From a virus: a DNA stretch of 64,000 nucleotides. The position numbers and the translations under genes were made by a program. The DNA lies in IMG/VR virus record IMGVR_UViG_3300023184_000037, positions 81,138 through 145,137 of that record, one strand, 5' to 3'. Each line of letters opens with the position of its first letter. Positions within the stretch are counted from its first letter, which is position 1. The notes under the pieces were generated by a model. It ran no database searches and was not told where the DNA came from. It worked only from the letters and a program-made list of their open reading frames with translations. Positions 4,083 to 24,259 of this stretch are shown here, piece by piece.

Positions 4083-4580
4083 ATGTACAAATTTAATCGA
4101 TTTCCTTTATGTTCACTAGTTTATTTTGAAGCTGCCAAAATCCTAGGTTATGACGACAATGAAGCAGCCTCACTTGCACAAGGTAGAGCCGCATTTTTCG
4201 CAGCCGCTAAAATGGGTTTTAAAAATAAAAATAGTGTGGTTGATAACCCTAATATCGACCTTGTAGAATCTATTCCTTTTGCCGGATTTCCCGCGTTTAT
4301 CTTACCTGCCGGAGCTATAGAAGGTGTTGATGGTATTGTATGTTGTACCCGAGATGGAGACAAAATCCATGAATCTTCAAGCCACTTTAAAAGTGAAAAT
4401 AGAATTATCAATAACGTAGGTTCTTTAGGATTGGCTAAACTTAAGCAACACATTAATGATGAGTTACTTGCATTAGGTGACAAAATAAACGCAAATGACA
4501 AGGTTTATAAAGTTTACGTTAAGATGAGAGACACTGCTAGACACGAAAATTTTTACGAAGATGTTCTTTTATCCGCCTAA
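4083..4580 (+). CDS. Hypothetical early protein
   Basis: 165 aa ORF directly after the early cassette. Confidence 0.6.
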   Translation: MYKFNRFPLCSLVYFEAAKILGYDDNEAASLAQGRAAFFAAAKMGFKNKNSVVDNPNIDLVESIPFAGFPAFILPAGAIEGVDGIVCCTRDGDKIHESSSHFKSENRIINNVGSLGLAKLKQHINDELLALGDKINANDKVYKVYVKMRDTARHENFYEDVLLSA

Positions 4581-5085
4581 GCCCGGTACAATATTCTTTA
4601 AATCAATTCCATTAGAAAATTATCTAGTGCAATGGAAGTGGAGAGGATGGAGAATATGTATCAACCAAAACGGAGAATGTTTCACTAGAACAAAAAAGAA
4701 GATTGACATTACCACCCATTTCCCTAAACAATCATATGACTATCAACTAGATGGAGAGATTATTAGTAAATCAGAGGAGATAGAATATCAAGTTAAGGGT
4801 GCTATTAAAAGCGGAGATTATGAAATCAAGATTTTTGATATTTTTATTCCATCCAAACCGGATTTAAAACTAATTGAAAGGTTAGAGATATTAAAAAATG
4901 ATTTTGGAATTGATGTCAAGCATGAAACCGTAAAAACATTTGATGATGTTAATAATTCACTATCCAATGCGTTATCTCTAGGAAGAGAAGGTATTGTACT
5001 AAAATTAAAAGATAGTGTTTGGAGAGCCGGAGAAACTATATCAAATATTGAACGAGATTGGATTAAAGTAAAAGCAAAAATATGA
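4561..5085 (+). CDS. Minimal ATP-dependent ligase (adenylation domain only)
   Basis: Motifs I QWKWRGWR, III LDGEI, IIIa IFDI, IV EGIVLK, V WIKVK at the C-terminus; no OB domain. Confidence 0.75.
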   Translation: MFFYPPKPGTIFFKSIPLENYLVQWKWRGWRICINQNGECFTRTKKKIDITTHFPKQSYDYQLDGEIISKSEEIEYQVKGAIKSGDYEIKIFDIFIPSKPDLKLIERLEILKNDFGIDVKHETVKTFDDVNNSLSNALSLGREGIVLKLKDSVWRAGETISNIERDWIKVKAKI

Positions 5086-5582
5086 AAAAAAAGACAGCCA
5101 AAAATAATTTTGAAAAGACGGGTTTAGTTGATGCCGAAATTGTTGCTCATCAATTAATCCATGAAATAGAACACATGTGCAATTCTATAGAAATTAGTGG
5201 TTCTATTCGTAGAGGTGCGGAAGAGGTTGGAGATATCGACATTGTTGTAATACCTAAAGATATCGATAATTTTCTAGTAGAGATTAAGGGTATTATAGAT
5301 TATGATTATGGAGGCACTAAAAAGGTATTTGGTATCTATAAAGAACGACCAATTAATATATTCTTAACCAATAGCGATTCTTTCGGTGCATGCCTTTACC
5401 AAACTACGGGTCCTGTTTTTTATAATATCCGTAAAAGAACCAAGGTAAAAGCAATGGGATATAAACTCAATGAGTACGGTTTATTTTGTAACACAACCGG
5501 AAACAAAGTTGCCGGAGACTCTGAGAATTCAATATTTGATTTCTTTGGTTGGTCAAGAAAAGATCCCAAATTAAGAGTGTGA
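5082..5582 (+). CDS. Minimal DNA polymerase X family protein (ASFV PolX-sized)
   Basis: SGSIRRG..GDIDIV, YQTTGP..YN, GYKLNEYGLF. Confidence 0.85.
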   Translation: MKKKTAKNNFEKTGLVDAEIVAHQLIHEIEHMCNSIEISGSIRRGAEEVGDIDIVVIPKDIDNFLVEIKGIIDYDYGGTKKVFGIYKERPINIFLTNSDSFGACLYQTTGPVFYNIRKRTKVKAMGYKLNEYGLFCNTTGNKVAGDSENSIFDFFGWSRKDPKLRV

Positions 5583-6506: not shown

Positions 6507-7943
6507 ATGGAATTCTTAGAAGCATTAAGACAAGAGGACATGGTAACTGAAAATGGAATGGCAACTAATTCGACATCGTTGAATGCATGTGTTGACCTTT
6601 TCTTTAACATTGGAGCTATGAGAGGACAAGACAAACAACGTTTGATTGCTACTTTCTCTAAAGCATTTAATGAAGACCCTAAGCGTGCTATGAAACTCCT
6701 TTTTTGGGCTAGAGATGTTAGAGGTGGAGCTGGAGAACGTCAAGTTTTCAAGGACATTTTAGTTTATTTGGCAGAAAACCATGATTTGGTACTTAAACCA
6801 AACTTACACTTAATTTCAGAGTATGGTCGTTGGGATGACTTACTAGCCCTAGCAGGAACATATCTTGAAAAGGAAGCATTCACCCTAATTTCTGATGCAA
6901 TCATCAACGAAAATGGTTTATGTGCTAAATGGATGCCACGTAAAGGAGCAGTAGCTGAAAAGTTACGTAAATTTACTGGAATGTCCCCAAAGCAGTACAG
7001 AAAATCTCTTGTAGGTTTAACTAATGTTGTTGAAACTAAAATGTGTGCTAAAGACTGGAATTCTATCGATTTCGGTAAATTACCATCTGTCGCTTCAGCA
7101 AGATACCAAAAAGCATTTGGTAAAAACGCATACGAAAGTTATTCAGCCTATATTGCTTCTCTTGTAAAAGGTGAGGCTAAAATTAATGCAGGTGCAGTTT
7201 ACCCATACGATGTGACTAAGTCTCTAAATTATGGAAACTCAAGCGTAGCAAACGAACAATGGAAAGCTCTTCCAAACTATATGGAAGGCGCAAACGATAT
7301 GATTTTACCAGTGGTTGATGTCTCAGGTTCTATGTCTTGCCCAGCAGGCGGTAGTAAATCTGTAACATGTATGGATGTTGCAATCTCATTAGGTCTTTAT
7401 ATTTCTGAAAGAAATGAAGGTCCTTTCAAAGATGCATTCATTACTTTCTCAAGTAAACCACAGTTACAAGTATTAAGTGGCTCATTGAGTGATCGCTACA
7501 CACAGATGTCAAACTCTGATTGGGGAATGTCAACGGATCTTGAGGCGACCTTCAAATTGATTTTAAATCAGGCCACTAAGCATAAACTATCGCAAGATAA
7601 AATGCCAAATAAAATCCTAATCCTATCGGATATGGAATTTAATGCAGCAGTTTATACTGGAGGTTATAGTACTAGATTTAAAGGTGGAACTTGGAATCCA
7701 ACTGCTCAGCAAATGATTGAGCAAATGTATGCTGACGCAGGTTACAAAGTACCTCAAATTGTTTACTGGAATATTCAATCCCGAAATGGAGGAGTACCAG
7801 TTGCATTTGATACTCAAGGAACTGCACTGGTTTCAGGATTCTCTCCAGCAATTATGACAAGTTTACTTGGAGGAGACATAGAATCTCCACAACAAATAAT
7901 GGATAAAACAATTTTGAGTGAGAGATACGCTCCAATTGTATAA
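6507..7943 (+). CDS. DUF2828-family TROVE/Ro60-like protein with C-terminal vWA domain
   Basis: TENG, RDVRGGAGER, YGRWDDL, AKWMPR; MIDAS DVSGSM, ILSDMEF, VYWNI, LVSGFSP. Confidence 0.85.
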   Translation: MEFLEALRQEDMVTENGMATNSTSLNACVDLFFNIGAMRGQDKQRLIATFSKAFNEDPKRAMKLLFWARDVRGGAGERQVFKDILVYLAENHDLVLKPNLHLISEYGRWDDLLALAGTYLEKEAFTLISDAIINENGLCAKWMPRKGAVAEKLRKFTGMSPKQYRKSLVGLTNVVETKMCAKDWNSIDFGKLPSVASARYQKAFGKNAYESYSAYIASLVKGEAKINAGAVYPYDVTKSLNYGNSSVANEQWKALPNYMEGANDMILPVVDVSGSMSCPAGGSKSVTCMDVAISLGLYISERNEGPFKDAFITFSSKPQLQVLSGSLSDRYTQMSNSDWGMSTDLEATFKLILNQATKHKLSQDKMPNKILILSDMEFNAAVYTGGYSTRFKGGTWNPTAQQMIEQMYADAGYKVPQIVYWNIQSRNGGVPVAFDTQGTALVSGFSPAIMTSLLGGDIESPQQIMDKTILSERYAPIV

Positions 7944-8400: not shown

Positions 8401-8676
8401 ATGAATATTTTAGACGAAGCAAGCGGAATTGTTAATAACCGCTCAGAAGAAGCAGACAGACAGTATGGTCCTTTCTCAGAAGGTATGGACAGAGCTGCAA
8501 TGATTTTTAGAGGTATGACCGGAATCGAAGTTACCGGAGAACACATGTTTAAAGCACTAGTTGCACTTAAATTCAGTAGAGAATCGTACAATCACAAGCG
8601 TGATAATTTATTAGATGCAGTTGCATATATCCAAGGATTAGACAACTACATTAACGAAAAGCAAAACAATGGTTAA
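8401..8676 (+). CDS. DUF6378-like small helical protein (nucleotide-modification associated)
   Basis: ILDEA..IV..R...YG....LK.SRE...HKRDN..D...Y pattern. Confidence 0.65.
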   Translation: MNILDEASGIVNNRSEEADRQYGPFSEGMDRAAMIFRGMTGIEVTGEHMFKALVALKFSRESYNHKRDNLLDAVAYIQGLDNYINEKQNNG

Positions 8677-9718
8677 TATTTACACAGTTTTAGATTCATT
8701 AAAGGGTAAGAAGATTGCAATTGATGATGTTGTAACTACTTATAGTTCAAAGAAGGCCAGCCATAAAAGTGCATGGGCTTTCTTATTAGCTAATCAATTA
8801 AGGTCCCTAGGACTGGATGCTGAAGTACTTACCAAGTCAGAAGATATTCACCAATATGATGTTTGGTTAGTAGCACTTCCAATGGAATTCCAAGGTTCTT
8901 ATAACCTATTTGGTGGAGCCACTGACGAACCAGCAGAAAGGATTAAAAGATTTTTAGATTTTGGTGGAACAATATATTGTTTGAATCGAGAAATGCCAGA
9001 TGTTGGAGCATTCGCGCAAAGTCGAATGAAATCATGTTCACCCTTATGGGCATCTCTTAATGTTGAAGCACTTACAAAGAAGAGTAAAGAAACCGAAACA
9101 ATTGAATTGAAATTGGCTTCCGGAACTTTTGTCTTAGGTGATTCCCATTCAGTTTCAGTATACCAACCGGGCGCAAATATTAGCCGAAATGATGGTAAAA
9201 CCCTATTTGGAGTTATGAAAGAGGGAATGACATCTTATATTCCTGAAGGAACTGACCATCTAATTACATACTTTGGAAACATTGATGTTCGTCATCACTT
9301 ATGCCGACAAGAAAAACCAGTCGACGCGGTTAAAGCCCTTGTAAAAAATTACTTTGAGCACTTACAATCACTAGGAATTCAAAAGAATACCGTTGTAAAA
9401 TTATTGCCTATCGAATTTGAAGGTCGCAGAATTCCAAAAACTGGGTACTATAAAGGTACTCCATTTATCGGAACTCAACGAGAACGCACTCAATTGATGG
9501 AAATATTTAACGAAGAGGTTGACAAACTCTCGGCTATATATAATATGAACGTAATCGAATGGCCGATTCATTGGTACTCAGCAGACCCACAATATTTTGC
9601 CGATACTTACATGGAGAAACCAGGTTCCGTTCACCTATCTAGAGAGTTTTACCAATATGATTTCGAGACGTCCGAAAAAAATGTTGTGCTAAAGAAAACT
9701 ATTAACACTCTTTTTTAA
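8669..9718 (+). CDS. Hybrid protein: beta-glucosyltransferase-like N-terminal domain plus SGNH-hydrolase-like domain
   Basis: KIAI...YDVWLV...SYNLFGG...IYCL; GDSH, GNID, SVHL; C-terminal INTLF. Confidence 0.5.
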   Translation: MVNIYTVLDSLKGKKIAIDDVVTTYSSKKASHKSAWAFLLANQLRSLGLDAEVLTKSEDIHQYDVWLVALPMEFQGSYNLFGGATDEPAERIKRFLDFGGTIYCLNREMPDVGAFAQSRMKSCSPLWASLNVEALTKKSKETETIELKLASGTFVLGDSHSVSVYQPGANISRNDGKTLFGVMKEGMTSYIPEGTDHLITYFGNIDVRHHLCRQEKPVDAVKALVKNYFEHLQSLGIQKNTVVKLLPIEFEGRRIPKTGYYKGTPFIGTQRERTQLMEIFNEEVDKLSAIYNMNVIEWPIHWYSADPQYFADTYMEKPGSVHLSREFYQYDFETSEKNVVLKKTINTLF

Positions 9719-9729
9719 AACAAAATAAT

Positions 9730-10314
9730 ATGAAAAACATTTTTTTAGATTGTGGAACCCATCTATGTGAAGGGTTACTAGAATTTCAGGCTAAAGGAGT
9801 TATTGATGATACATTTGAGATTCATACCTTTGAGGCAAATCCTGAATGTAAAATAGAAGAACGTGTAAAGAAAATACCCTTAAATATTACTCCACATAAT
9901 GTGGCAGTATGGATTGAGGACGGATTCGTATTGTTTAACCAAGAAAATCATAAAAAGAGTAATTGCGGTTCCCCGACTGATGGACAATCCGATATAGATG
10001 GATGGGCATCTTCGATTAATGGAATAGGATTTTACTGGCCAGGATATGAGACCCATGTCCAAGTTCCAAGTATTGATTTTAGCAAGTTTGTTTCTGAGCT
10101 ACCCAAAGATTCAAACATAATATGTAAAATGGATATTGAAGGTTCTGAATTCTCAGTCCTAAGAAAGATGATAGAAGAGGGTACAATTAGTAACATAAAG
10201 GAAATCTATATTGAGTTCCATGAAAGAGCTATGCCATCTGAATCTGTTGAATCCCGTCAAAAAATAGTTAATGACATTACAAACCTAGGTGTAGTAGTAC
10301 ATGAATGGTTTTAA
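9730..10314 (+). CDS. FkbM-family SAM-dependent methyltransferase
   Basis: FLDCGTH, FEANP, KMDIEGSE, IEFH. Confidence 0.85.
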   Translation: MKNIFLDCGTHLCEGLLEFQAKGVIDDTFEIHTFEANPECKIEERVKKIPLNITPHNVAVWIEDGFVLFNQENHKKSNCGSPTDGQSDIDGWASSINGIGFYWPGYETHVQVPSIDFSKFVSELPKDSNIICKMDIEGSEFSVLRKMIEEGTISNIKEIYIEFHERAMPSESVESRQKIVNDITNLGVVVHEWF

Positions 10315-10370: not shown

Positions 10371-11558
10371 ATGAACAAAATTAAAGTAGGAATTATCGGA
10401 ACAGGAAATTGCGCTAAATCATTAGTTGAAGGTGTACAATATTACACTGAAAATCCAAATGATATTACCGGAATGATGAAGTCCGATATTGGAGGTTACA
10501 AAGCAGAAAACATCGAGTTTGTATGTGGATTCGAAATTGATGAACGTAAAGTTAATCAAACATTAGGATACGCTCTTAAACAAAGACCAAACTCTGCATG
10601 GGATATTGTTGACGTAATTCATTCTGAGGCTCCAGTTTATGAGGCTCCAGTTATTGATGGTTATGCAGCCCTTATGGATAACTATCCAGAACAAAATCGT
10701 TTCTTAGTTGACGAAAAACTAAGAAATTCTACGGACATGAATCGTACTGATTGGACTCCAAAAAAATCACGTGAATGGAAAGACTCAATCATTGCTAAAT
10801 TAAAAGAGCATGGTGTTGAAGTACTTATTAACTACTTACCAGTAGGTTCACAAAAAACAACTGAATTCTGGGCTGAAATTTGCCTTGAAACAGGAATCTC
10901 TTTAGTAAACTGTATTCCAGTTTTTATCGCATCTGACCCAGCTTGGGAGCAAAGATTTATCGATGCTGGAATTCCAATTATCGGAGATGATATGCGTTCT
11001 CAATTTGGAGCAAGTATCCTTTCTCAAATGTTACAAGAACTTGCCTTTGAAAGAGGACATCATGTAAAAGCGCACATCCAAAGAAATGTTGGAGGTAACA
11101 CAGATTTCTTAAACATGGAAGACAAATCTCGTCTAGCATCTAAAAAGATTTCTAAAGAAAACGTAATTCGTGCCCAAAACGAAATTAGAGGAATCTCAAC
11201 TGAAGATTCATTCTTACACGCTGGTCCTTCTGAGTATATTGCATTTTATGGCGATAACAAAGTTGCTAACTTCCGTTTAGAACTTACAGGATTCGGTGGA
11301 GCACCAGTTCTTTTTGATGCTCAATTAAGTGTACAAGACTCTCCAAACTCAGCTGGAGTAGTAATCGATGCAGTTCGTTATTTAAGAGTTGCAAGAGAAT
11401 TAGGAGTTGTAGGAGCATTAAGAGGTCCTTCAGCGTTTACTCAAAAAACCCCACCAGATCAAATGATGTTTGCTGATGCTGTTTATGAGTGTACTGAATT
11501 GGCTGCAAGACGCTTAACAGATTCTACAAGAAAACAGTTAGTTGCTAAAAAAGCCTAA
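10371..11558 (+). CDS. ino1: Myo-inositol-1-phosphate synthase
   Basis: GTGNCAKSLVEG, NYLPVGS, GDDMRSQFGA, GGNTDFLNM, SKKISK, DSPNSAG. Confidence 0.95.
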   Translation: MNKIKVGIIGTGNCAKSLVEGVQYYTENPNDITGMMKSDIGGYKAENIEFVCGFEIDERKVNQTLGYALKQRPNSAWDIVDVIHSEAPVYEAPVIDGYAALMDNYPEQNRFLVDEKLRNSTDMNRTDWTPKKSREWKDSIIAKLKEHGVEVLINYLPVGSQKTTEFWAEICLETGISLVNCIPVFIASDPAWEQRFIDAGIPIIGDDMRSQFGASILSQMLQELAFERGHHVKAHIQRNVGGNTDFLNMEDKSRLASKKISKENVIRAQNEIRGISTEDSFLHAGPSEYIAFYGDNKVANFRLELTGFGGAPVLFDAQLSVQDSPNSAGVVIDAVRYLRVARELGVVGALRGPSAFTQKTPPDQMMFADAVYECTELAARRLTDSTRKQLVAKKA

Positions 11559-11618: not shown

Positions 11619-12017
11619 ATGTTAAACATATTTAAAACCAAAAAACCAGTCGATATCTATGGATACGATTTTGATGGAGTAATTTCAATTGGAATAACTC
11701 CAAGAGCAACCACAGATTTTGTTATTACCGGAAGATGTATTGACGAACAAGACGAAATCCGTGCAATCCTTAAAGAGAGAGGAATTAAATGCAAAGTGTA
11801 TTTTAATCCAATGACTCTTGAAGAACGTGGAAACCATACAGTTGCAGCTAGAAGGCATTCTGGAAATCACAAAGCAAAAACCCTTAATCGTTTAAAAGAT
11901 GAAGGTGTTATTGTTTCACGTTTTTTTGAAGATGACCCAATCCAATACCAAATTATCCAGGAAAACTGTCCTGATGTTGAATTGGTTAACATTGTATCAA
12001 AATTAGTACAGAAATAA
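11619..12017 (+). CDS. Capless HAD-superfamily phosphatase
   Basis: Motif I DFDGV, II ITGR, III K (NHKA), IV FEDD. Confidence 0.85.
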   Translation: MLNIFKTKKPVDIYGYDFDGVISIGITPRATTDFVITGRCIDEQDEIRAILKERGIKCKVYFNPMTLEERGNHTVAARRHSGNHKAKTLNRLKDEGVIVSRFFEDDPIQYQIIQENCPDVELVNIVSKLVQK

Positions 12018-12018
12018 G

Positions 12019-12720
12019 ATGAGTAGGGTTAAACTTCCTGAGTTTCCAATTTCTAAGTTAGAAAAAACTCGTCTTAAAAAGAAATACGTAAAAATATTGG
12101 GTGCAACCGAAGGTGTTGACGATAGTATGATTGGCGAAAGTATTGCTAATTACTTAATTCCTGAAATTGATTATAGGGGAATGGTTTGCCTTGACCTTGG
12201 AGCCAACATTGGAGCTTTTACTCAAATTGCGCTGGATGCCGGAGCAAGTAAAGTTTGTACTGTTGAATGCGATGCCAGAAACTTTGCAAAACTCGAGTCA
12301 ACTTATAAAAATGATGATTACGTTGATTTGGTTTATGCTGCCGTTTCCGGATTGCCTAATAAAACCTTAAAAATATTTAAGTCTGCTAGTCAAAACGCAC
12401 ATTGCTCAACATCAATTGAGAGCAAAATGAAGTTCAGCGAATATGATGAGGTCGAAAACATACACCTAAAAAAGTTACTAAAGAAATACAACCCAGATAT
12501 TATCAAGATTGATATTGAATCTGCCGAGTATACCCTAATCGATACTTTATTAGATTATGAACCTAAATATTTATTTATTGAATTACACGCAGGAAAACAT
12601 AGGGCTGAAATGTATCAAGTACTGGAAAGATTAGAGTCGATTTATCCGCATTCAAGAGTGGTTCCATTGATTATATTTACCGACAATTTGATAGCGCACG
12701 ACTGCTTCTTTAAAAAATAA
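12019..12720 (+). CDS. FkbM-family SAM-dependent methyltransferase
   Basis: LDLGANIGAF, VECD, KIDIESAE, IELH. Confidence 0.85.
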   Translation: MSRVKLPEFPISKLEKTRLKKKYVKILGATEGVDDSMIGESIANYLIPEIDYRGMVCLDLGANIGAFTQIALDAGASKVCTVECDARNFAKLESTYKNDDYVDLVYAAVSGLPNKTLKIFKSASQNAHCSTSIESKMKFSEYDEVENIHLKKLLKKYNPDIIKIDIESAEYTLIDTLLDYEPKYLFIELHAGKHRAEMYQVLERLESIYPHSRVVPLIIFTDNLIAHDCFFKK

Positions 12721-12728
12721 AATATAAA

Positions 12729-13916
12729 ATGACTTCAAATAAACAACTGCTTGAGATGGATTCTCAAGCACTGTTGGATTTAATACCAACAGAAAAAAGA
12801 CAATTGATCCGAGATTTTGTTCATGAAATGAATCGAAGAGAATATGAGGTTCGTTTTGCAAAAACATGTACCTTTGATACTTTTAGACACAGAGAGGGTA
12901 CTGGAGAGAACATCTTTGGCCATGGATTTATAGTAGAGGGACGTTCAGTTCCATACTTCCACCCAAACCGTTCATTCCACGATGAGATTATTTGGTTAAA
13001 TGAAAATGTGTTCTACAATCCAGAATGTACTTTTGAAGACCGATTAATTAATGCAGCAATTGTAAAGTTCTATGGTCCGTCGAATACAATTAGTCTATTA
13101 ACACACGACACTGGATTTCCATTCGTTAAATATGACCGATTGGTTAACGACGAGAAGTACGTTCTGCAGTGTATGGTTAATATGGAGAATGCAAGAAGGC
13201 GTGGTGAAAAGATTTATGGTACTACAGAATTACGAACAAGTCTACAGACCGAATCGAGAAATCATGCAAGGGTTCTTAAAACTCCTTATGATGTATTAAT
13301 TGGTGCCGAACCGGATCCAACCAGACAGAGTCGAACAAGTGATATGTTTTTTTGGTTTACCCTACTAGGTCCACGTTTTGCAGAATTCTATGCCAAAAAA
13401 CCGACGATGGAAGAGTCGTTTAACTTTTTAACATCACATCGAGGAATTGGAAACTATTATGGTTACCATTTTAGTACCAACCTTGCCCGAATGCCAGAAA
13501 TCGGAACGCCAGACCTATTGCGACCAGGCAGCCTATCTGGAAATCTTAACGAAGACGATGACTTTGTTGCACCTGGAGTTGGAGCGATGACCACAATCAA
13601 CTGGTTCTATGAACACTTAGGTTTTTCAATCTCGTCAGAAGTAGGAGCCAAGGTTATCAGACAAATCAGGGACACTCAACATGAATTCTTTGATTTTACT
13701 GGAGAAAATCTTGACTATTTAGAAACAATCACTGAGACCGGAAGATTTACAACGTTTGGTACAGAAATTAGTTGTTGTCAGTTTGGTGTATTTTTACGAT
13801 TGAGAGATAGTAAAAAGATGGCCCTAAACCGAGCAAATGCTCCAATTTCTAAAGAACAAATTGGTGAATCATGCGAAGTAGATGAACCAACATTTAAAAG
13901 TTCATGTTTATTTTAA
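12729..13916 (+). CDS. aGPT-Pplase1 / amino acid:DNA transferase-like base hypermodification enzyme (HhH-glycosylase fold)
   Basis: GIGNYYGYH..NL, EDDDFVAPGVGA and terminal EISCCQF match the GxG.F...D..ENDF..PGPGA...E..LCE(F/Y) pattern; C-terminal SCLF. Confidence 0.7.
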   Translation: MTSNKQLLEMDSQALLDLIPTEKRQLIRDFVHEMNRREYEVRFAKTCTFDTFRHREGTGENIFGHGFIVEGRSVPYFHPNRSFHDEIIWLNENVFYNPECTFEDRLINAAIVKFYGPSNTISLLTHDTGFPFVKYDRLVNDEKYVLQCMVNMENARRRGEKIYGTTELRTSLQTESRNHARVLKTPYDVLIGAEPDPTRQSRTSDMFFWFTLLGPRFAEFYAKKPTMEESFNFLTSHRGIGNYYGYHFSTNLARMPEIGTPDLLRPGSLSGNLNEDDDFVAPGVGAMTTINWFYEHLGFSISSEVGAKVIRQIRDTQHEFFDFTGENLDYLETITETGRFTTFGTEISCCQFGVFLRLRDSKKMALNRANAPISKEQIGESCEVDEPTFKSSCLF

Positions 13917-13958: not shown

Positions 13959-14426
13959 ATGGCAAATATAGACAATCAATGTAAAGACCTGGAAGTTAAA
14001 GACTTCTATTCAGATTCGACCACCCACCTGGCGGATATTATGGAAAACCAAAAGAAAATGCAGGAGCAGACTTATGGCTTTAATTTTGAAAATATGTCAA
14101 TTAGAGAAATTATGAACTTCTGGCATGTTAATACACATGCAGTAGTTGATGAAATTCACGAGATGACAGATGCCCTTGGAGGTATTAAAGATGGTAGTGG
14201 AAATGCAGTTTGGAAATACTGGAAAAAAGACTTTTCAAAGTATGAAACTATGAAAATTAGCGATCTATCTGAAGAGGACAAAAAAGAACTTTATATGGAA
14301 TGGGTAGACATACTACACTTCTTTATAAATTATGCGTCTTCAATCGGATTAGATGCAAAAACAGCTTACAATTATTACTTCGCGAAAGCAGAAGAAAATG
14401 TCGCAAGACAACAACGAGGGTATTAA
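13959..14426 (+). CDS. Dimeric all-alpha dUTPase/dCTPase (T4 gp56-like)
   Basis: DEIHE, WKYWK, EWVDILHF, KAEENVARQQRGY. Confidence 0.85.
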   Translation: MANIDNQCKDLEVKDFYSDSTTHLADIMENQKKMQEQTYGFNFENMSIREIMNFWHVNTHAVVDEIHEMTDALGGIKDGSGNAVWKYWKKDFSKYETMKISDLSEEDKKELYMEWVDILHFFINYASSIGLDAKTAYNYYFAKAEENVARQQRGY

Positions 14427-14469: not shown

Positions 14470-15339
14470 ATGAAAGCATTTATATATCAATGGACTAATA
14501 ATCTAAACGGAAAGAAATACATCGGATCACACATTGGAGAGCCTGAAGACGGTTATGCCGGTTCAGGCTCTTATTTTAAGAAAGCATTTAATAAATATAA
14601 AGATTTTTTTACTAGAGAAATTTTAGAAACTATAGATGGAGAAAATGTCTATGATAGAATTAAAATACTCGAAGAATCATATTTACAAAAAGTAGATGCT
14701 GCTAATAATTCCAATTATTATAATATCACAAATTCATATTATGGCGGTAATGTATATCAAGGGTTATCAATAGATGATAAAAAGAAAATGATAGAAGGTC
14801 GGACCAATGCCGCAAAAAATGATAGATTAAAAAATCCTCAAAAATATGAAGACATTGCTAAAAAGAAAAGTGCAATTCAAAGAGAAAAAGGTAAAGACGT
14901 TTATCAATTTACAAAAGATGGACAATTTATTGCAAAATATTCATGTTTAGAAGAAGCACATAAAATAACTAATATATCAAAAGGAAATTTACATTGCGCG
15001 CTTAATGCTAGCAGAAATTTTGCAAGTGGATTTAGATGGTCTTATAAAAATATACCAAATGATTTAATTCCACCTAAAAAACGTAATCATAAAAGTACTG
15101 GAAAGCAAAAGAATCCATCTAAACATATCAATATTATATATGTTCAAATAATTCAATGTGATTTAAAAGGAAATGAAATTCACACATGGAATAATAAAAA
15201 TGAAATTCAAGAACATTTAGGTATTAGTGCACAAATGATTAATCATGCGATAAATGGTAGAGGTAAAAATAATACCGGAGAATATAAAGGATTTATATGG
15301 AAAAAAGGTAAACAAATTAAAACGACAAAATATAATTAA
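14470..15339 (+). mobile_element. Free-standing GIY-YIG homing endonuclease (Seg-like) with NUMOD1 DNA-binding modules
   Basis: FIYQWTN..NGKKYIGSH, YAGSG, YYNI; VYQFTKDGQFI and IQCDLKGNEI modules. Confidence 0.9.
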
Positions 15340-15363: not shown

Positions 15364-16761
15364 ATGATTTTAGACATCGAACAGCGTGAAAAAGATGTTA
15401 TCATTTCATACTACAATGACAAAGGAGAAGTAGCATTCAAACAATACCCAGTGGATAAATTCCAAAATTGGTATGTTTGTGATGACAAAGACAAAGCGGC
15501 CAGTCCAGAGTATAAAAACTGGGATGGCCGTCCTGTTAAACTAGGATATGGAAAACAATTCAATAAGTTTTCCATTCTTTATTTTTTAGATAATCTTTCA
15601 GAGAAAGACAAAAAAGATTTAACAGCATATAATATGCCAAAAACTTATTTTGTCGATATTGAAACTGAAATTGTTGACGGCTTTCCAAAAGCCGAAGAGG
15701 CCAAAAGTAGAATTCTTTCATTCTCAATAATTACTCCAGACCGTAAAGCAATCGTTTTAGGTTTAGAGGATATGGCATCGGATAAAATCCAAAAGATTCA
15801 AGACGATACCAATGAGTACTTTAAAGATTTTGATATGGACTGGGAATTTAAGTACCATAAGTTTAAATCAGAGTATGACATGGTGTACACATTCTTAATG
15901 AAATTCTTACCAAAGTTTCCAATGATGACTGGATGGAATTTTATTAACTATGACTGGCAATATATTGTTAATCGATGCAAAAGACTTCAAATCGACATCA
16001 AAGAAATTGGTATGACAAATTCAATCGATCATACTGATGGCCGACCTCTTCATATCGGAATTCTTGACTACATGCAATTGTATGACAAATATGACCGAAC
16101 TGTAAAAGTTAAAGAATCCAACTCTTTGGATTATGTTTCTAGTCAAGTCTTGAACGTGAACAAAATCAAGTTCACTGGCTCACTACAGGACTTATACCGA
16201 GATAACTTTGTCAAGTACATATATTACAATGTGGTCGATTCAGTGCTTGTATACTACATTGACCAGAAGTTGAAGTCGATGGAGGTACTATTAACCTTGG
16301 CAAACATTACAAATATGCCATTGTATAAAGCAAGTTCTCCAGTGGCAGTTACTGAGGCGATTATGGCCAGAAAACTTGCCGAGCAAGGAATGCGAATTGG
16401 AAGCGAAGAGAAAAATGATAGTCAAAAAGATGGACAATATGCTGGAGCATTTGTAAAAGAACCAATCCTTGGATTCTATGAAGGTGTAAGTGCATTTGAC
16501 TTTGCGTCACTATATCCTTCGATCATGAGACAGTTCAATATATCTCCAGATGCATACATCGAAAAGATTTATAAAAGTGAAATTGAAGAACGTAGAAAAA
16601 ATAAAGAGGTTATTGTTTGTGATAATGGTGTAGTATATAAGACCGAAGATTCAATCTTAAGAAAAATATTAAGTGACCTATATGCGCAGCGTAAAGATTA
16701 TAAAAAAACTTCTTATGAATATTTCACAAAAGCTGACCGGTTGAAAAAACTGCTCCAATAA
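15364..16761 (+). CDS. gp43A: Family B DNA polymerase, N-terminal part (3'-5' exonuclease plus motif A)
   Basis: DIETE, GWNFINYD, YNVVD, YAGAFV, DFASLYPSIM; ends in the fingers domain. Confidence 0.9.
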   Translation: MILDIEQREKDVIISYYNDKGEVAFKQYPVDKFQNWYVCDDKDKAASPEYKNWDGRPVKLGYGKQFNKFSILYFLDNLSEKDKKDLTAYNMPKTYFVDIETEIVDGFPKAEEAKSRILSFSIITPDRKAIVLGLEDMASDKIQKIQDDTNEYFKDFDMDWEFKYHKFKSEYDMVYTFLMKFLPKFPMMTGWNFINYDWQYIVNRCKRLQIDIKEIGMTNSIDHTDGRPLHIGILDYMQLYDKYDRTVKVKESNSLDYVSSQVLNVNKIKFTGSLQDLYRDNFVKYIYYNVVDSVLVYYIDQKLKSMEVLLTLANITNMPLYKASSPVAVTEAIMARKLAEQGMRIGSEEKNDSQKDGQYAGAFVKEPILGFYEGVSAFDFASLYPSIMRQFNISPDAYIEKIYKSEIEERRKNKEVIVCDNGVVYKTEDSILRKILSDLYAQRKDYKKTSYEYFTKADRLKKLLQ

Positions 16762-19515: not shown

Positions 19516-19562
19516 ATGTTTAAAATCTAGAGATATATAAATAAAATAAAAATCTTTTGCAA

Positions 19563-20645
19563 ATGATTCCAATCAAGCTTTTCGAAGAATTCTTATACGA
19601 AGAAAATCTTAAAAACAAATATGCTAAGAAAGTGGCATGGATTATGAAGTCTCATGATATTCATGCAACTTCAGGCGATGTTAATGGTCGTGAAAAGAAA
19701 TACAATATTGCCGCTAAAGGTAACCTATTCTTGAACTATGCAACCAAAGAGGACTTTGAAGATGATAGCGTTGTAGTACCTGGAGATGTGCCAATACTTA
19801 ATTATGGCGGAGCAGTCGACCCAGAGGCGATCGGATTCTTAAAGAATAAAGGTATTAACAACGATAATCTATACAACAAGAGAGAATTACTTCCACTTTC
19901 AGGAGACAAGGTAAAATTTGCCAAAGCAGCCGCAAAATTTGATTGGCTTCCAAAGACATGTTTTTCAAAAGAGGACGCAATTAAAGGAGACGTCGGTTTT
20001 CCAGTAATTGCAAAAATAAAAGATGGACATAGCGGAGTTGGAATTCAAAAATTCGACACTGCCAAAGAACTTGAAGCGAGCAAAGATAAATTCGATATCT
20101 TTTGTCAATTTATAGATTTTGCTAGAGAATACAGAGTAATGTTCTGTAGAGACAAGATTTTTGTTATTAATGAAAGAGTTCCGAGAATTGAAGATGACCG
20201 TTCGATTAAAACAAAAACTGCCGATGAGAAAATCAGTTTTACTTATGTTTATCAAGACCAAAACAAGGTCGACCCTAAATTCATCGAAAATGTGTTATCA
20301 ATTTGTAAAGACGTTAAAACATTTTTAGACCTAGACTTATGGGCCCTAGATATTGTAGTAGACAAAAAAGGTAAAATGTGGATTATGGAAACATCATCTG
20401 CAACCGGACTTGGAAGCGTTAAAATGTGCGAAGTTTATAAGGCAATGTATGAAGATTTTTATGGAGAACCCTTAGATGACGAATTCTTAGAGGACATTTA
20501 CCTAAAATATGTAGTTCCTGGGCATCAGAATTACTACCCAAAATTTAAAAAAGAAATTGACTCTTCTCAGTGGCCAATGGACTATAAAATATTAACGGAT
20601 CCCAAAGCAAAAGATGGGTATAGATATTTTTTTAATTTAGATTAA
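19563..20645 (+). CDS. RimK-like ATP-grasp ligase with capsid-targeting-like N-terminus
   Basis: GDK, FPVIAK..GHSGVG, QFID..REYRV, ALDIV, IMETSS; MIPIKLFEEFLYE. Confidence 0.8.
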   Translation: MIPIKLFEEFLYEENLKNKYAKKVAWIMKSHDIHATSGDVNGREKKYNIAAKGNLFLNYATKEDFEDDSVVVPGDVPILNYGGAVDPEAIGFLKNKGINNDNLYNKRELLPLSGDKVKFAKAAAKFDWLPKTCFSKEDAIKGDVGFPVIAKIKDGHSGVGIQKFDTAKELEASKDKFDIFCQFIDFAREYRVMFCRDKIFVINERVPRIEDDRSIKTKTADEKISFTYVYQDQNKVDPKFIENVLSICKDVKTFLDLDLWALDIVVDKKGKMWIMETSSATGLGSVKMCEVYKAMYEDFYGEPLDDEFLEDIYLKYVVPGHQNYYPKFKKEIDSSQWPMDYKILTDPKAKDGYRYFFNLD

Positions 20646-20649
20646 TAAC

Positions 20650-21711
20650 ATGAAAACAGGAATTTTTAAAACATCGCTAAAGGAAAACGAAAAACGTATT
20701 CCAATCCATCCGGCTCATATTGAAAGACTATCTGGAGATATACTTAAAGAACTCGTATTTGAAGAGGGATATGGAACTGATTATGGTTATTCAGACATTC
20801 AACTTGCACAAATGGGTTGTAAGTTTGCCAGTCGCGAGAATCTTTTTAAAGAGTGTAGTATAATCATATTGCCAAAACCCGTTGCCGAAGACTTAAAACA
20901 AATGCAAGATGGTGCAACCCTATGCGGTTGGACCCACGCAGTTCAACAGAGAGATATTACTGATATTGCAATTGAAAAGGGTTTAACACTTCTTGCATGG
21001 GAAGAGATGAACAATGTTAGTAAAAATTCTAAAATGCATACATTCTATCGTAACAATGAATTAGCAGGTTATGCTGGAGTTATTCATTATTTACAATTGG
21101 CCGGTCTTGATGGACACTATGGTGAACGTAAGAAAGTTGTTATTTTTGGATATGGTTCTGTAAGTAAAGGAGCAATATATGCCCTACAGGGAAGAGGTTT
21201 TAATAACATTACAGTTTATACTCAGCGACCTACTCACCTAGTTGCCGATAAAAATCCTGATGTTTGGTACAAAAACTTTAATGATGACGATATTTGGGAA
21301 GACATTTACTCCGCTCATATTATATTTAATGGAGTCCTACAGGACGTAAATAATCCTCTAATGTTTATTAAAGATTTAGACCAATTAGACCAATTACGTA
21401 GAAATTGCGCAATCATCGATATTAGTTGTGACAAGGGAATGGGATTCTTTTTTGCCGAACCTACAACATTTGAAAATCCAATTATCAAATTAAGAAGAGG
21501 TATTCAATACTATTCGGTCGATCATACTCCAACATACTTATGGAATGCGGCTTCTAGAGAAATTTCTGCCGCACTGGTTCCATACTTAAGTACTATAATA
21601 GAACCCCAAAAATGGGAGGATAATCCAGTTATCAGCGGTTGTATAGATATTAAATCTGGTGTTATTATTAATCAAAACATAAACAGATTTCAAAAAAGGA
21701 TATATAAATAA
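20650..21711 (+). CDS. ceo: N5-(carboxyethyl)ornithine synthase (AlaDH/PNT family)
   Basis: KENEKRIPIHP, GWTHAVQ, AWEEM, FYRNNELAGY, GYGSVSKGA, DISCD, VDHTP. Confidence 0.85.
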   Translation: MKTGIFKTSLKENEKRIPIHPAHIERLSGDILKELVFEEGYGTDYGYSDIQLAQMGCKFASRENLFKECSIIILPKPVAEDLKQMQDGATLCGWTHAVQQRDITDIAIEKGLTLLAWEEMNNVSKNSKMHTFYRNNELAGYAGVIHYLQLAGLDGHYGERKKVVIFGYGSVSKGAIYALQGRGFNNITVYTQRPTHLVADKNPDVWYKNFNDDDIWEDIYSAHIIFNGVLQDVNNPLMFIKDLDQLDQLRRNCAIIDISCDKGMGFFFAEPTTFENPIIKLRRGIQYYSVDHTPTYLWNAASREISAALVPYLSTIIEPQKWEDNPVISGCIDIKSGVIINQNINRFQKRIYK

Positions 21712-23062: not shown

Positions 23063-24259
23063 ATGACAATCGACGAATTAATACTAAAACCAGAGAGTGA
23101 GTTATCACAGGATGAAATTAAAATCTTGGTTGAGCATTATTCTATGTTGTCAGCAAAGTTCGGTGCCTATGAGCAAGCAGTAAAAGTAATGCTTAACTCT
23201 ATTTATGGTGCCTTTGGAAACAAATGGTTTCACTTTTTTAATATAGACATCGCAGAATCTATCACCTTACAGGGACAGTCTGCGATTCTATATTCTGAAA
23301 AGATTCTAAACAAATATTTTCAAGAGTTTTGGAATAAAGACCGAGCAGTTCATGAGTTTTTTAACATTCAAGTTAAGAACAAATTGGTTCGACCATCAGT
23401 AGTTTATATTGATACAGATTCATGTTACGTACAGTTTGAAGAGATGTATGAATCTATTGAATGGCTTGGAGACAAGCTAACAATTGACCAATTCATTATG
23501 AAATTGTACAACTTCAGACTTAAAGATTATATTTTTAAGTGCATGGAGAAATATGCGGAAGCAACCAATACTGAAAACTTCCTCCAGTTTGAATTGGAAA
23601 CTATTGCATACTCTGGAATTTGGTTGGCTAAGAAAAAATACTTGCAGAATCTCGCATGGGACGATAAAATTGGAATTGATGACAGACACCCATCTCTTAA
23701 GAAGGTAAAAACTATCGGATTTGATACAATTCAAAGTTCAACTCCAGCTCTCGCAAGAAAGCAGTTGACGGAGATTCTTAAACTGATTCTTTCAGAAAAA
23801 CCTACCGCTTCTTTATTGAAGAGACTTGTAGATTATTTGAAACAATGTAAAAAAGAATTTCAATTAGCAAGTGTTGATGAGATATGTTTTAATAAAAGAA
23901 CAAACAATCTTGAAAAATATATCGTAGATGATACGGTAGAATTTCAATATGGTTTAAAATGTCCGCCAAACGTAAAAGCCGCAGGTTTCTATAATTTCTT
24001 AATGAATCAAAATCCAAAGTTTAAGAACAAATATAAGATGATTGGTAACGGTGAAAAACTGAAACTATATCACTGTAAACATGCAACTTGCGAGATATTT
24101 GCATACCAACCTGGAGCTCACCCTTATGAAATTGCACCGACAGTTGACTATGAAATGCAATTTGAAAAGAGTGTTATAGACCCATTGAACCGTGTTTTAA
24201 CCGCAGTTGGACTGCACACATTAAATAGAAACTTAATTTATTCAACCTCATTATTTTAA
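23063..24259 (+). CDS. gp43B: Family B DNA polymerase, C-terminal part (motifs B, C and thumb)
   Basis: KVMLNSIYGAFG, ITLQGQ, YIDTDS, AKKKY; C-terminal STSLF. Confidence 0.92.
   Translation: MTIDELILKPESELSQDEIKILVEHYSMLSAKFGAYEQAVKVMLNSIYGAFGNKWFHFFNIDIAESITLQGQSAILYSEKILNKYFQEFWNKDRAVHEFFNIQVKNKLVRPSVVYIDTDSCYVQFEEMYESIEWLGDKLTIDQFIMKLYNFRLKDYIFKCMEKYAEATNTENFLQFELETIAYSGIWLAKKKYLQNLAWDDKIGIDDRHPSLKKVKTIGFDTIQSSTPALARKQLTEILKLILSEKPTASLLKRLVDYLKQCKKEFQLASVDEICFNKRTNNLEKYIVDDTVEFQYGLKCPPNVKAAGFYNFLMNQNPKFKNKYKMIGNGEKLKLYHCKHATCEIFAYQPGAHPYEIAPTVDYEMQFEKSVIDPLNRVLTAVGLHTLNRNLIYSTSLF

Follow-up and report, generated by a model that had tools for sequence, protein, structure and literature searches.

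What could a T4-like phage do with a protein in which half of a DNA glucosyltransferase appears to be joined to a serine-hydrolase fold? This question is raised by a 349-aa open reading frame (ORF 8669-9718, plus strand) in the IMG/VR record IMGVR_UViG_3300023184_000037, whose product is referred to as the target in the following. The whole stretch of DNA analyzed, referred to as the window, comprises 64,000 nucleotides (positions 81,138 to 145,137 of the record) and represents the final 64 kb of a 145-kb T4-like phage record, with all genes on one strand and a GC content of about 33%. Besides the target, the window encodes a T4 gp15-like protein, a UvsX/RecA-like protein, a gp41-like helicase, ribonucleotide reductase (RNR) and a split family-B DNA polymerase (PolB), and the target gene itself is placed in a replication and nucleotide-metabolism block between a DUF6378 gene and the gp56/PolB genes. 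The analyses described here led to the conclusion that the target family probably represents a new enzyme architecture within phage DNA base hypermodification, a known kind of system.

An earlier inspection of the letters alone, the sequence-only reading, had described the target as a domain resembling the N-terminal domain of T4 beta-glucosyltransferase (BGT) fused to an SGNH domain that replaces the UDP-sugar domain. All strings quoted for this proposal were found within the ORF, namely KIAI (residues 15-18), YDVWLV (63-68), SYNLFGG (77-83), IYCL (102-105) and FAQS (115-118) in the N-terminal half, and GDSH (157-160), GNID (203-206) and SVH (320-322) in the C-terminal half. The BGT strings given for comparison proved to be real, as BLASTP against T4 b-gt (NC_000866) aligned the elements YD..V, S.N.FGG, IY.L, F.QS and WA.L; this single-pair alignment (28% identity over 93 residues, E 0.028) is marginal on its own. 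Profile-profile comparison of 141 target relatives with 42 BGT-family proteins using hhalign gave a Prob of 97.0% and P 8.9e-11, aligning target residues 14-105 to BGT residues 1-97, whereas one reversed and five column-shuffled BGT profiles yielded P values of 0.18-0.63 and two unrelated families values of 0.04 and 0.33. The continuation of this alignment into the C-terminal half of the target carried no confidence, and the target-family profile reached a Prob of just 34% against the lone T4 BGT sequence, so that deeper profiles were needed on both sides. Because of the P value obtained against clean controls, we regard the homology between the N-terminal domain (N-domain) of the target and that of BGT as genuine, though distant.

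Folded alone with AlphaFold2 (AF2) from a 27-sequence alignment of fetched loci, the N-domain gave a model with a pLDDT of 93.6. Comparison of this model with 48,161 PDB chains returned T4 BGT (1c3j_A) at rank 1 (Z 6.5, rmsd 3.2 Å, 104 aa, model residues 14-147 on chain residues 1-137) and T4 alpha-glucosyltransferase at rank 9. At a Z of only 6.5, the structural likeness of the N-terminal half to T4 BGT is modest. Foldseek also assigned the highest TMq in its list to BGT (1qkj, 0.55), at an E of just 0.012 and with nothing in the PDB at E ≤0.001, and an ESM Atlas shape search with the N-domain returned only the family itself and generic flavodoxin-like folds. Sequence searches of PDB chains with the target sequence, the family profiles and the profile of a neighbouring protein (partner A, see below) gave nothing meaningful. 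Five N-domain residues, S31, H32, N79, G83 and R119, are invariant throughout the family, conservation here and below being given across 141 diverse relatives. In GT-B enzymes, the N-terminal half forms the acceptor side of the cleft, which in T4 BGT is the side of DNA containing 5-hydroxymethylcytosine (hmC).

For the C-terminal half, the full-length AF2 model of the target (33-sequence alignment; pLDDT 89.9, pTM 0.88) was compared with known structures, and residues 148-343 matched more than 40 SGNH structures in VIA-align, including esterases and O-acetyltransferases (Z 10-12.2, rmsd ~3 Å, 150-180 aligned residues), in agreement with Foldseek, which gave a probability of 1.00 for many SGNH structures. 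The Pfam family Lipase_GDSL was recognized below threshold in the target (17.6 bits versus a cut-off of 23.6) and in 11 of 33 relatives (best E 1.3e-4). Ser159 and His322 are found at the canonical places in secondary-structure order, and the block residues are kept in at least 99% of the relatives except for N204 (for G203 see Table 1), while the block II glycine, G176, is kept in 82%. The SGNH blocks therefore go beyond chance resemblance, with Z 10-12 to dozens of SGNH structures, and the proposed architecture, a BGT-type N-domain followed by an SGNH domain where the UDP-sugar domain would be expected, was confirmed by profile-profile homology and by the fold search of each half.

This architecture is widespread. 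The target matches two PHROGs without assigned function (E ~1e-59). Its relatives number more than 1,100 at 90% clustering, and not one of them is named or carries a Pfam domain; at least 570 IMG/VR stretches encode a relative, and relatives of known origin are viral. An exhaustive hidden Markov model (HMM) search with the N-domain alone retrieved 253 clusters at 50% identity, and among the best 150 of these nearly all showed the combination of N-domain and SGNH domain in 300-370 aa. As the GDS motif was present in 121 of the 143 N-domain proteins retrieved, the two domains evidently travel together. A related-locus search with T4 BGT returned 5 close loci only. Two larger proteins, P0230 (639 aa) and P0206 (560 aa), carry the target-type N-domain with other C-terminal additions, and such additions include weak matches to MGDG_synth (GT28 N-terminal) and to the SinI restriction endonuclease.

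Synteny revealed, as overlooked by the sequence-only reading, that the target gene belongs to a conserved multi-gene module (Table 1).

Table 1 Coordinates of the target, its domains and conserved residues, and the genes of the surrounding module (window positions).
Feature	Position	Strand	Remarks
DUF6378 small protein	8401-8676	+	Pfam DUF6378 E 1.2e-8; end overlaps target start codon
Target N-terminal domain, aa 1-147	8669-9109	+	Homologous to T4 BGT N-terminal domain, judged by profile comparison
S31-H32	8759-8764	+	Family-wide conserved
N79 to G83, NLFGG	8903-8917	+	Family-wide conserved
R119	9023-9025	+	Family-wide conserved
Target C-terminal domain, aa 148-349	9110-9718	+	SGNH fold
G157, D158, S159 (block I)	9137-9148, with H160	+	Kept in 99%
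H160 (block I GDSH)	within 9137-9148	+	Kept in 100%
G203 (block III)	within 9275-9286	+	Kept in 96%
N204 (block III)	within 9275-9286	+	N 82%, Ser 16%
D206 (block III)	within 9275-9286	+	Kept in 99%
R208, H210, R213	C-domain	+	Kept in 96-98%
R253, R273	C-domain	+	Kept in 100%
E316	9614-9616	+	Kept in 100%
H322 (block V SVH)	9626-9634	+	Kept in 99%
FkbM-family S-adenosylmethionine (SAM) methyltransferase 1	9730-10314	+	Pfam Methyltransf_21 E 1.3e-10; TIGR01444
Inositol-3-phosphate synthase (MIPS/Ino1) homologue	10371-11558	+	Pfam Inos-1-P_synth E 1.2e-22
Small HAD-type phosphatase-like protein	11619-12017	+	phrog_415 E 2.4e-4; DFDGV motif at 11667-11681
FkbM-family SAM methyltransferase 2	12019-12720	+	Pfam Methyltransf_21 E 2.4e-12
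Partner A, 395 aa, HMUDK_hel family	12729-13916	+	Pfam HMUDK_hel E 1e-7, 32.1 bits versus cut-off 25
T4 gp56 dCTPase/dUTPase homologue, MazG-like NTP pyrophosphohydrolase (orf155)	13959-14426	+	BLASTP; phrog_173 E 8e-14

One member of this module, partner A, belongs to HMUDK_hel, the helical domain of 5-hydroxymethyldeoxyuridine (5-hmdU) DNA kinases; HMUDK is said to have been defined by Iyer et al. in 2013. In Aeromonas phages 44RR and 31, the target homologue is fused to a C-terminal partner A homologue, the 44RR fusion (44RR2.8t.2) being annotated as a 795-aa hypothetical protein to whose C-terminal half partner A is 41% identical. The same order is captured in the 795-aa profile of phrog_17781, which is matched by the target at positions 12-349 and by partner A at 373-784. 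The partner A family shows strongly conserved motifs in its alignment, and its ESM Atlas neighbours are clusters of HMUDK_hel and of amino acid:DNA transferase (ADDT), a lead only. A conserved C-terminal extension of about 100 aa, absent from the window copy, is found in the partner A proteins at L080:10762-12318, L073:10754-12214 and L070:10750-12210. In another clade, the target is followed by a second type of protein, partner B (~400 aa). Fusions of partner B with the target were seen in L062 and in a further 16 proteins from metagenomes, and partner B is accompanied by a weakly similar paralogue, a pairing likewise reported for aGPT-Pplases (PMC8989533). Comparison of partners A and B with hhalign gave no detectable similarity (Prob 0.4%); HMUDK_hel accounts for 11-14% of the members of the ESM Atlas clusters nearest to partner B, again a lead only, so that a shared HMUDK_hel superfamily for both partners is drawn solely from ESM Atlas neighbours. 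In a further protein, P0149 (981 aa), FkbM, HMUDK_hel and the target-type N-domain are combined in one chain. Complex prediction for the target with partner A returned a score of 0.00, which gives no verdict either way.

Across the 80 loci of the synteny table, two layouts prevail. About 40 loci contain the DUF6378 gene, the target, MIPS, the HAD phosphatase, sometimes FkbM, partner A and the gp56-like gene, and about 17 loci contain the DUF6378 gene, the target, a CitG-like gene, partner B with its weak paralogue, a pyridoxal phosphate (PLP) enzyme of the PALP fold and the gp56-like gene, which closes the module in both locus types. The DUF6378 gene directly precedes the target in nearly all related loci. 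MIPS comes after the target in some 50 related loci, among which target identity falls to as little as 37%, and matches TIGR03450 with an E of 4.6e-85, below the equivalog cut-off; the HAD-type protein, which resembles the phosphatase part of polynucleotide kinase (PNK), is syntenic with MIPS, and FkbM methyltransferase 1 is restricted to the closest loci. The second layout is exemplified by L059:9204-13222, where the target is followed by the CitG-like protein (ATP:dephospho-CoA triphosphoribosyl transferase family, E 8e-11), partner B, a 368-aa paralogue and the PALP-fold PLP enzyme (phrog "threonine dehydratase", E 5e-39); in this clade, the core seems to be combined with other accessory reactions. 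Other loci depart further, since L046-L049 carry the target without the MIPS-HAD-partner A genes, Aeromonas phage 25 (L095:2171-5442) encodes a UDP-galactopyranose mutase (Pfam GLF, E 5e-54) and a 358-aa protein matching neither the partner A nor the partner B family directly upstream of a stand-alone target, and 44RR2.8t.2 (L001:5303-9283) and UP87 (L096:2778-6783) have a sodium:solute symporter directly upstream of the target-partner A fusion. Across these locus types, the target recurs as the constant element, joined by an HMUDK_hel-type partner in most lineages, and the variable elements are genes supplying small molecules. No glycosyltransferase was recognized in most modules, and no P-loop 5-hydroxymethylpyrimidine DNA kinase was found among the module ORFs, to which the search for one was confined.

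Genes for the supply of a modified base accompany the target. The gp56 homologue of the window is 34% identical to T4 gp56 (BLASTP E 2e-19), and the genome encodes a single thymidylate-synthase-family gene, which falls far short of the cut-offs set for true ThyA. Its product shares 28% identity with T4 gp42 and carries Asp at the cytosine-specifying position D179 of T4 gp42, where ThyA has Asn. The same Asp was found in eight other target-bearing records (44RR, the complete 225-kb L062 record and six further ones), which include all four records of at least 77% completeness, and Asn occupies this position in the true ThyA copies that two of these genomes encode. No thymidylate-synthase gene was found in 8 fragmentary target-bearing records of 27-43% completeness; as this gene lies about 77 kb from the target in the genome studied here, its absence from such fragments is uninformative. 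In L048:8001-9940 and L049:7992-9947, a gp42-like gene of the Asp type directly follows the target homologue, an adjacency that mirrors the position of b-gt next to gene 42 in T4 (L083).

These observations also bear on cultured phages. Petrov et al. (2010) reported that phages 44RR, 31 and 25 possess genes 42 and 56 and no glucosyltransferase, and that the modification status of their hmC is unknown (PMC2993671). Because these phages carry both genes without a glucosyltransferase, the target family is a candidate for their hmC-modifying enzyme. A tblastn search revealed target homologues in relatives of Aeromonas phages 44RR, 31 and 25, with no match in Aeromonas phages Aeh1 or 65, and among the Aeromonas phage records 48 contain a gp42-like gene and 38 the target.

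Taken together, the fusions to HMUDK_hel and FkbM, the gp56 homologue alongside and the co-occurrence with gp42-like genes strongly suggest that the target has a role in DNA base modification. We favour, with moderate confidence, the reading that the target is the common catalytic subunit of a post-replicative hypermodification module acting on hmC, or a related 5-substituted cytosine, in the phage's own DNA. The modified base would be made by the gp42-like dCMP-specific thymidylate-synthase homologue together with the gp56-like dCTPase, and we infer that the substrate of the target is the 5-hydroxymethyl group of cytosines in DNA, on which it makes or handles an ester. The hmC would be flipped out and held by the N-domain so that its 5-CH2OH group reaches the serine site of the SGNH domain, where the ester would be formed by O-acyl transfer from an acyl-enzyme intermediate, ester cleavage being the less likely alternative. 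Of the DNA-base acylating enzyme suggested by the sequence-only reading, the base-modification role is thus strongly suggested by context, while the acyl chemistry stays conjectural.

In the next steps of the proposed mechanism, the target would work with its HMUDK_hel-family partner (partner A here, type B elsewhere), encoded nearby or fused, from a family that handles hydroxymethylpyrimidines in DNA. Acylation would take the role of phosphorylation by the 5-hmdU DNA kinase and turn the hydroxymethyl oxygen into a leaving group, whereupon the helical partner would install a nucleophile supplied by the variable neighbour genes. In this phage, the nucleophile may be myo-inositol, provided by the MIPS homologue and the HAD phosphatase and O-methylated by the FkbM enzymes. 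Acylation as an activating step is favoured here because the module contains a helical partner and no kinase, and because the accessory genes look suited to providing nucleophiles or sugars; there is precedent for substitution at the 5-methylene carbon once it bears a leaving group (PMC8989533, PMC11472151). Taken as a complete scheme, in which SGNH-type esterification of hmC in DNA is followed by HMUDK_hel-type displacement by, for example, myo-inositol to give an O-methylated inosityl-oxymethylcytosine in abundant aquatic T4-like phages, with ribosyl, galactofuranosyl or amino-acid-derived variants elsewhere, the proposal is tentative and rather doubtful in all its parts together. If true, this base would be of a kind not described so far, and a carboxylic ester would replace the phosphate that serves as leaving group in thymidine hypermodification.

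Several findings weigh against the hmC-directed role and the ester chemistry proposed here. Taken alone, the model-based scores of the N-domain (Z 6.5, Foldseek E 0.012) lie within the range of generic Rossmann-like similarity, an HMM of the N-domain searched against PDB sequences at E up to 10 retrieved no BGT chains, and PF09198 (T4-Gluco-transf) was matched neither by the target nor by any of 33 relatives (Pfam, E up to 0.1). The catalytic carboxylates of T4 BGT, Glu22 and Asp100, appear not to be retained: the former pairs with W36 of the target (W in 85% of the relatives) in the confident part of the alignment, and the latter lies just beyond it, opposite the variable positions 106-108 (D/N/H/G, P/E/D). 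In the SGNH domain, the usual block V Asp at -3 from the His is absent, position 319 being G, Q, K or R, a gap for which the invariant E316, 6 residues upstream of H322, may be the obvious substitute. The many invariant Arg and His residues could point to a phosphorylated substrate rather than to simple acyl chemistry, and no gene for an acyl donor or acyl carrier is evident in the module. Finally, thymidylate-synthase homologues can also make 5-hydroxy- or 5-methyl-dCMP (PMC13326640), so that the base may not be hmC.

The neighbours that vary between lineages, i.e. MIPS, the CitG-like protein, UDP-galactopyranose mutase and the Na+/solute symporter, would fit equally well with tailoring of a sugar or cyclitol on DNA. 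According to this explanation, which we consider unlikely though not negligible, the target would O-acylate or de-O-acylate a sugar or cyclitol that hmC in DNA already bears through the action of other enzymes, a reaction known from SGNH O-acetyltransferases and esterases with peptidoglycan, xylan and sialic acid as substrates. The best structural matches of the C-domain are indeed carbohydrate esterases and peptidoglycan O-acetyltransferases or esterases (PatB, OatA, Ape1), and the supply of sugar-like molecules is suggested by MIPS with HAD here, by the mutase in phage 25 and by the symporter in 44RR and UP87. However, the target is constant while the sugar-supply genes vary or are absent, which would be unusual for a tailoring step, most modules lack a recognizable glycosyltransferase, and the domain derived from BGT suggests that the group bound is the hydroxymethyl base itself.

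Alternatively, the target might act on a small molecule, such as an inositol, sugar, nucleotide or lipid ester, making or releasing a donor for another DNA-acting protein, with the BGT-like domain merely binding a small acceptor. N-domains of GT-B enzymes accept many kinds of acceptor, the BGT catalytic residues are apparently not kept, the target is tightly linked to MIPS and HAD, and its invariant Arg and His residues might suit the binding of a phosphorylated metabolite. We nevertheless regard this explanation as improbable, given the repeated fusion to HMUDK_hel-family proteins, whose characterized relatives act on DNA (PMC8989533), the retention of the fused enzyme in Aeromonas phages without MIPS or HAD, and a homology that is specific to the DNA glucosyltransferase family and not to generic GT-B families. 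A conventional SGNH esterase or lipase outside DNA modification, in which the N-domain is of a generic Rossmann-like type, e.g. an auxiliary metabolic or cell-envelope enzyme whose likeness to BGT is convergent or due to chance, could be read from the modest N-domain structural scores and from the flavodoxin-like folds as the only ESM Atlas neighbours outside the family, but is very improbable in view of the profile-profile P value against clean controls, the position of the gene in the replication and nucleotide-metabolism block, the fusions to HMUDK_hel and FkbM, the co-occurrence with gp42-like genes and the viral origin of the family wherever it is known.

Comparison with characterized systems places the favoured hypermodification role in context. 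The target shares with T4 BGT (PF09198; PDB 1c3j, 1qkj) about 100 homologous N-terminal residues, through the NxFGG loop and the next strand, an occurrence in T4-like phages with gp42-like and gp56-like genes and, in some relatives, the direct adjoining of a gp42-like gene. In contrast to BGT, it has an SGNH domain in place of the GT-B C-terminal UDP-glucose domain and leaves the Pfam model unmatched; without a UDP-glucose domain and with Glu22 and Asp100 apparently not conserved, its chemistry presumably differs from glycosyl transfer. With SGNH/GDSL enzymes (PatB, the OatA C-terminal domain, TesA, CE2/CE3 esterases), the target shares the fold, the block I GDS serine after a strand at the start of a helix and the conserved block III Asp and block V His, together with a block III Asn kept in 82%, whereas it differs by a GDSH block I with invariant His, by the missing block V Asp, by the additional residues R208, H210, R213, R253, R273 and E316, all treated as invariant here at the levels given in Table 1, and by the junction to a DNA-glucosyltransferase-type domain, an SGNH fusion of which no other example was found in the literature searched.

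A parallel in modular logic is thymidine hypermodification by a 5-hmdU DNA kinase and an amino acid:DNA transferase, as in M6, ViI, PaMx11, PhiW-14 and SP10, where a constant core on a hydroxymethylpyrimidine is likewise combined with variable accessory enzymes, an HMUDK_hel-family protein, core components that are fused in some lineages and base supply by a thymidylate-synthase-family enzyme. In the module described here, however, the target takes the place expected for the P-loop kinase, the base probably derives from cytosine and not from uracil, as indicated by the Asp at the gp42 D179 position, and the accessory MIPS, HAD, FkbM, CitG-like and Glf proteins are not from known pathways. The arabinosyl-hmC clusters of RB69 and DLP3 resemble the present one in belonging to T4-like phages with genes 42 and 56 and no T4-type glucosyltransferase, and in a small sugar-phosphate pathway with a PNK-type HAD phosphatase adjoining the DNA-modifying enzyme. 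Those clusters rely on GT-B glycosyltransferases and a nucleotide-sugar donor, whereas the constant enzyme here contains a serine-hydrolase domain, and neither a nucleotidyltransferase nor a glycosyltransferase was found in this module. A literature search returned no paper in which DNA hypermodification is linked to SGNH domains or to the synthesis of inositol.

Further features were observed in the vicinity of the module, all on the plus strand. Overlapping small ORFs at 4561-5582 match the adenylation domain of an ATP-dependent DNA ligase (174 aa) and the palm/thumb of a DNA polymerase beta (166 aa), and the gene at 6507-7943 encodes a 478-aa DUF2828/DUF7788 protein, TROVE/Ro60-like (phrog_850 "RNA-binding protein", E 1e-156), followed by about 450 nt without an ORF up to ~8400. 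Downstream of the gp56-like gene, an ORF resembling a NUMOD1 homing endonuclease (14470-15339) precedes the first half of the family-B polymerase, which is divided into two ORFs 6.3 kb apart (15364-16761 and 23063-24259); between the two halves lie the small and large subunits of RNR, an ATP-grasp protein (19557-20645) and an alanine-dehydrogenase/PNT-like protein (20650-21711).

Whether restriction, CRISPR or type IV defence succeeds against a phage is decided by the hypermodifications of its DNA, and these pathways also provide enzymes for epigenetic sequencing. If the proposed function is true, the target family would provide the first SGNH-type enzyme assigned to DNA base modification and would show how the acceptor-side half of a DNA glucosyltransferase was re-used alongside another catalytic domain. 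For the question of which enzyme, if any, modifies hmC in T4 relatives with genes 42 and 56 and no glucosyltransferase, such as phages 44RR, 31 and 25, which dates back at least to 2010 (PMC2993671), the family offers a concrete candidate in cultured phages.

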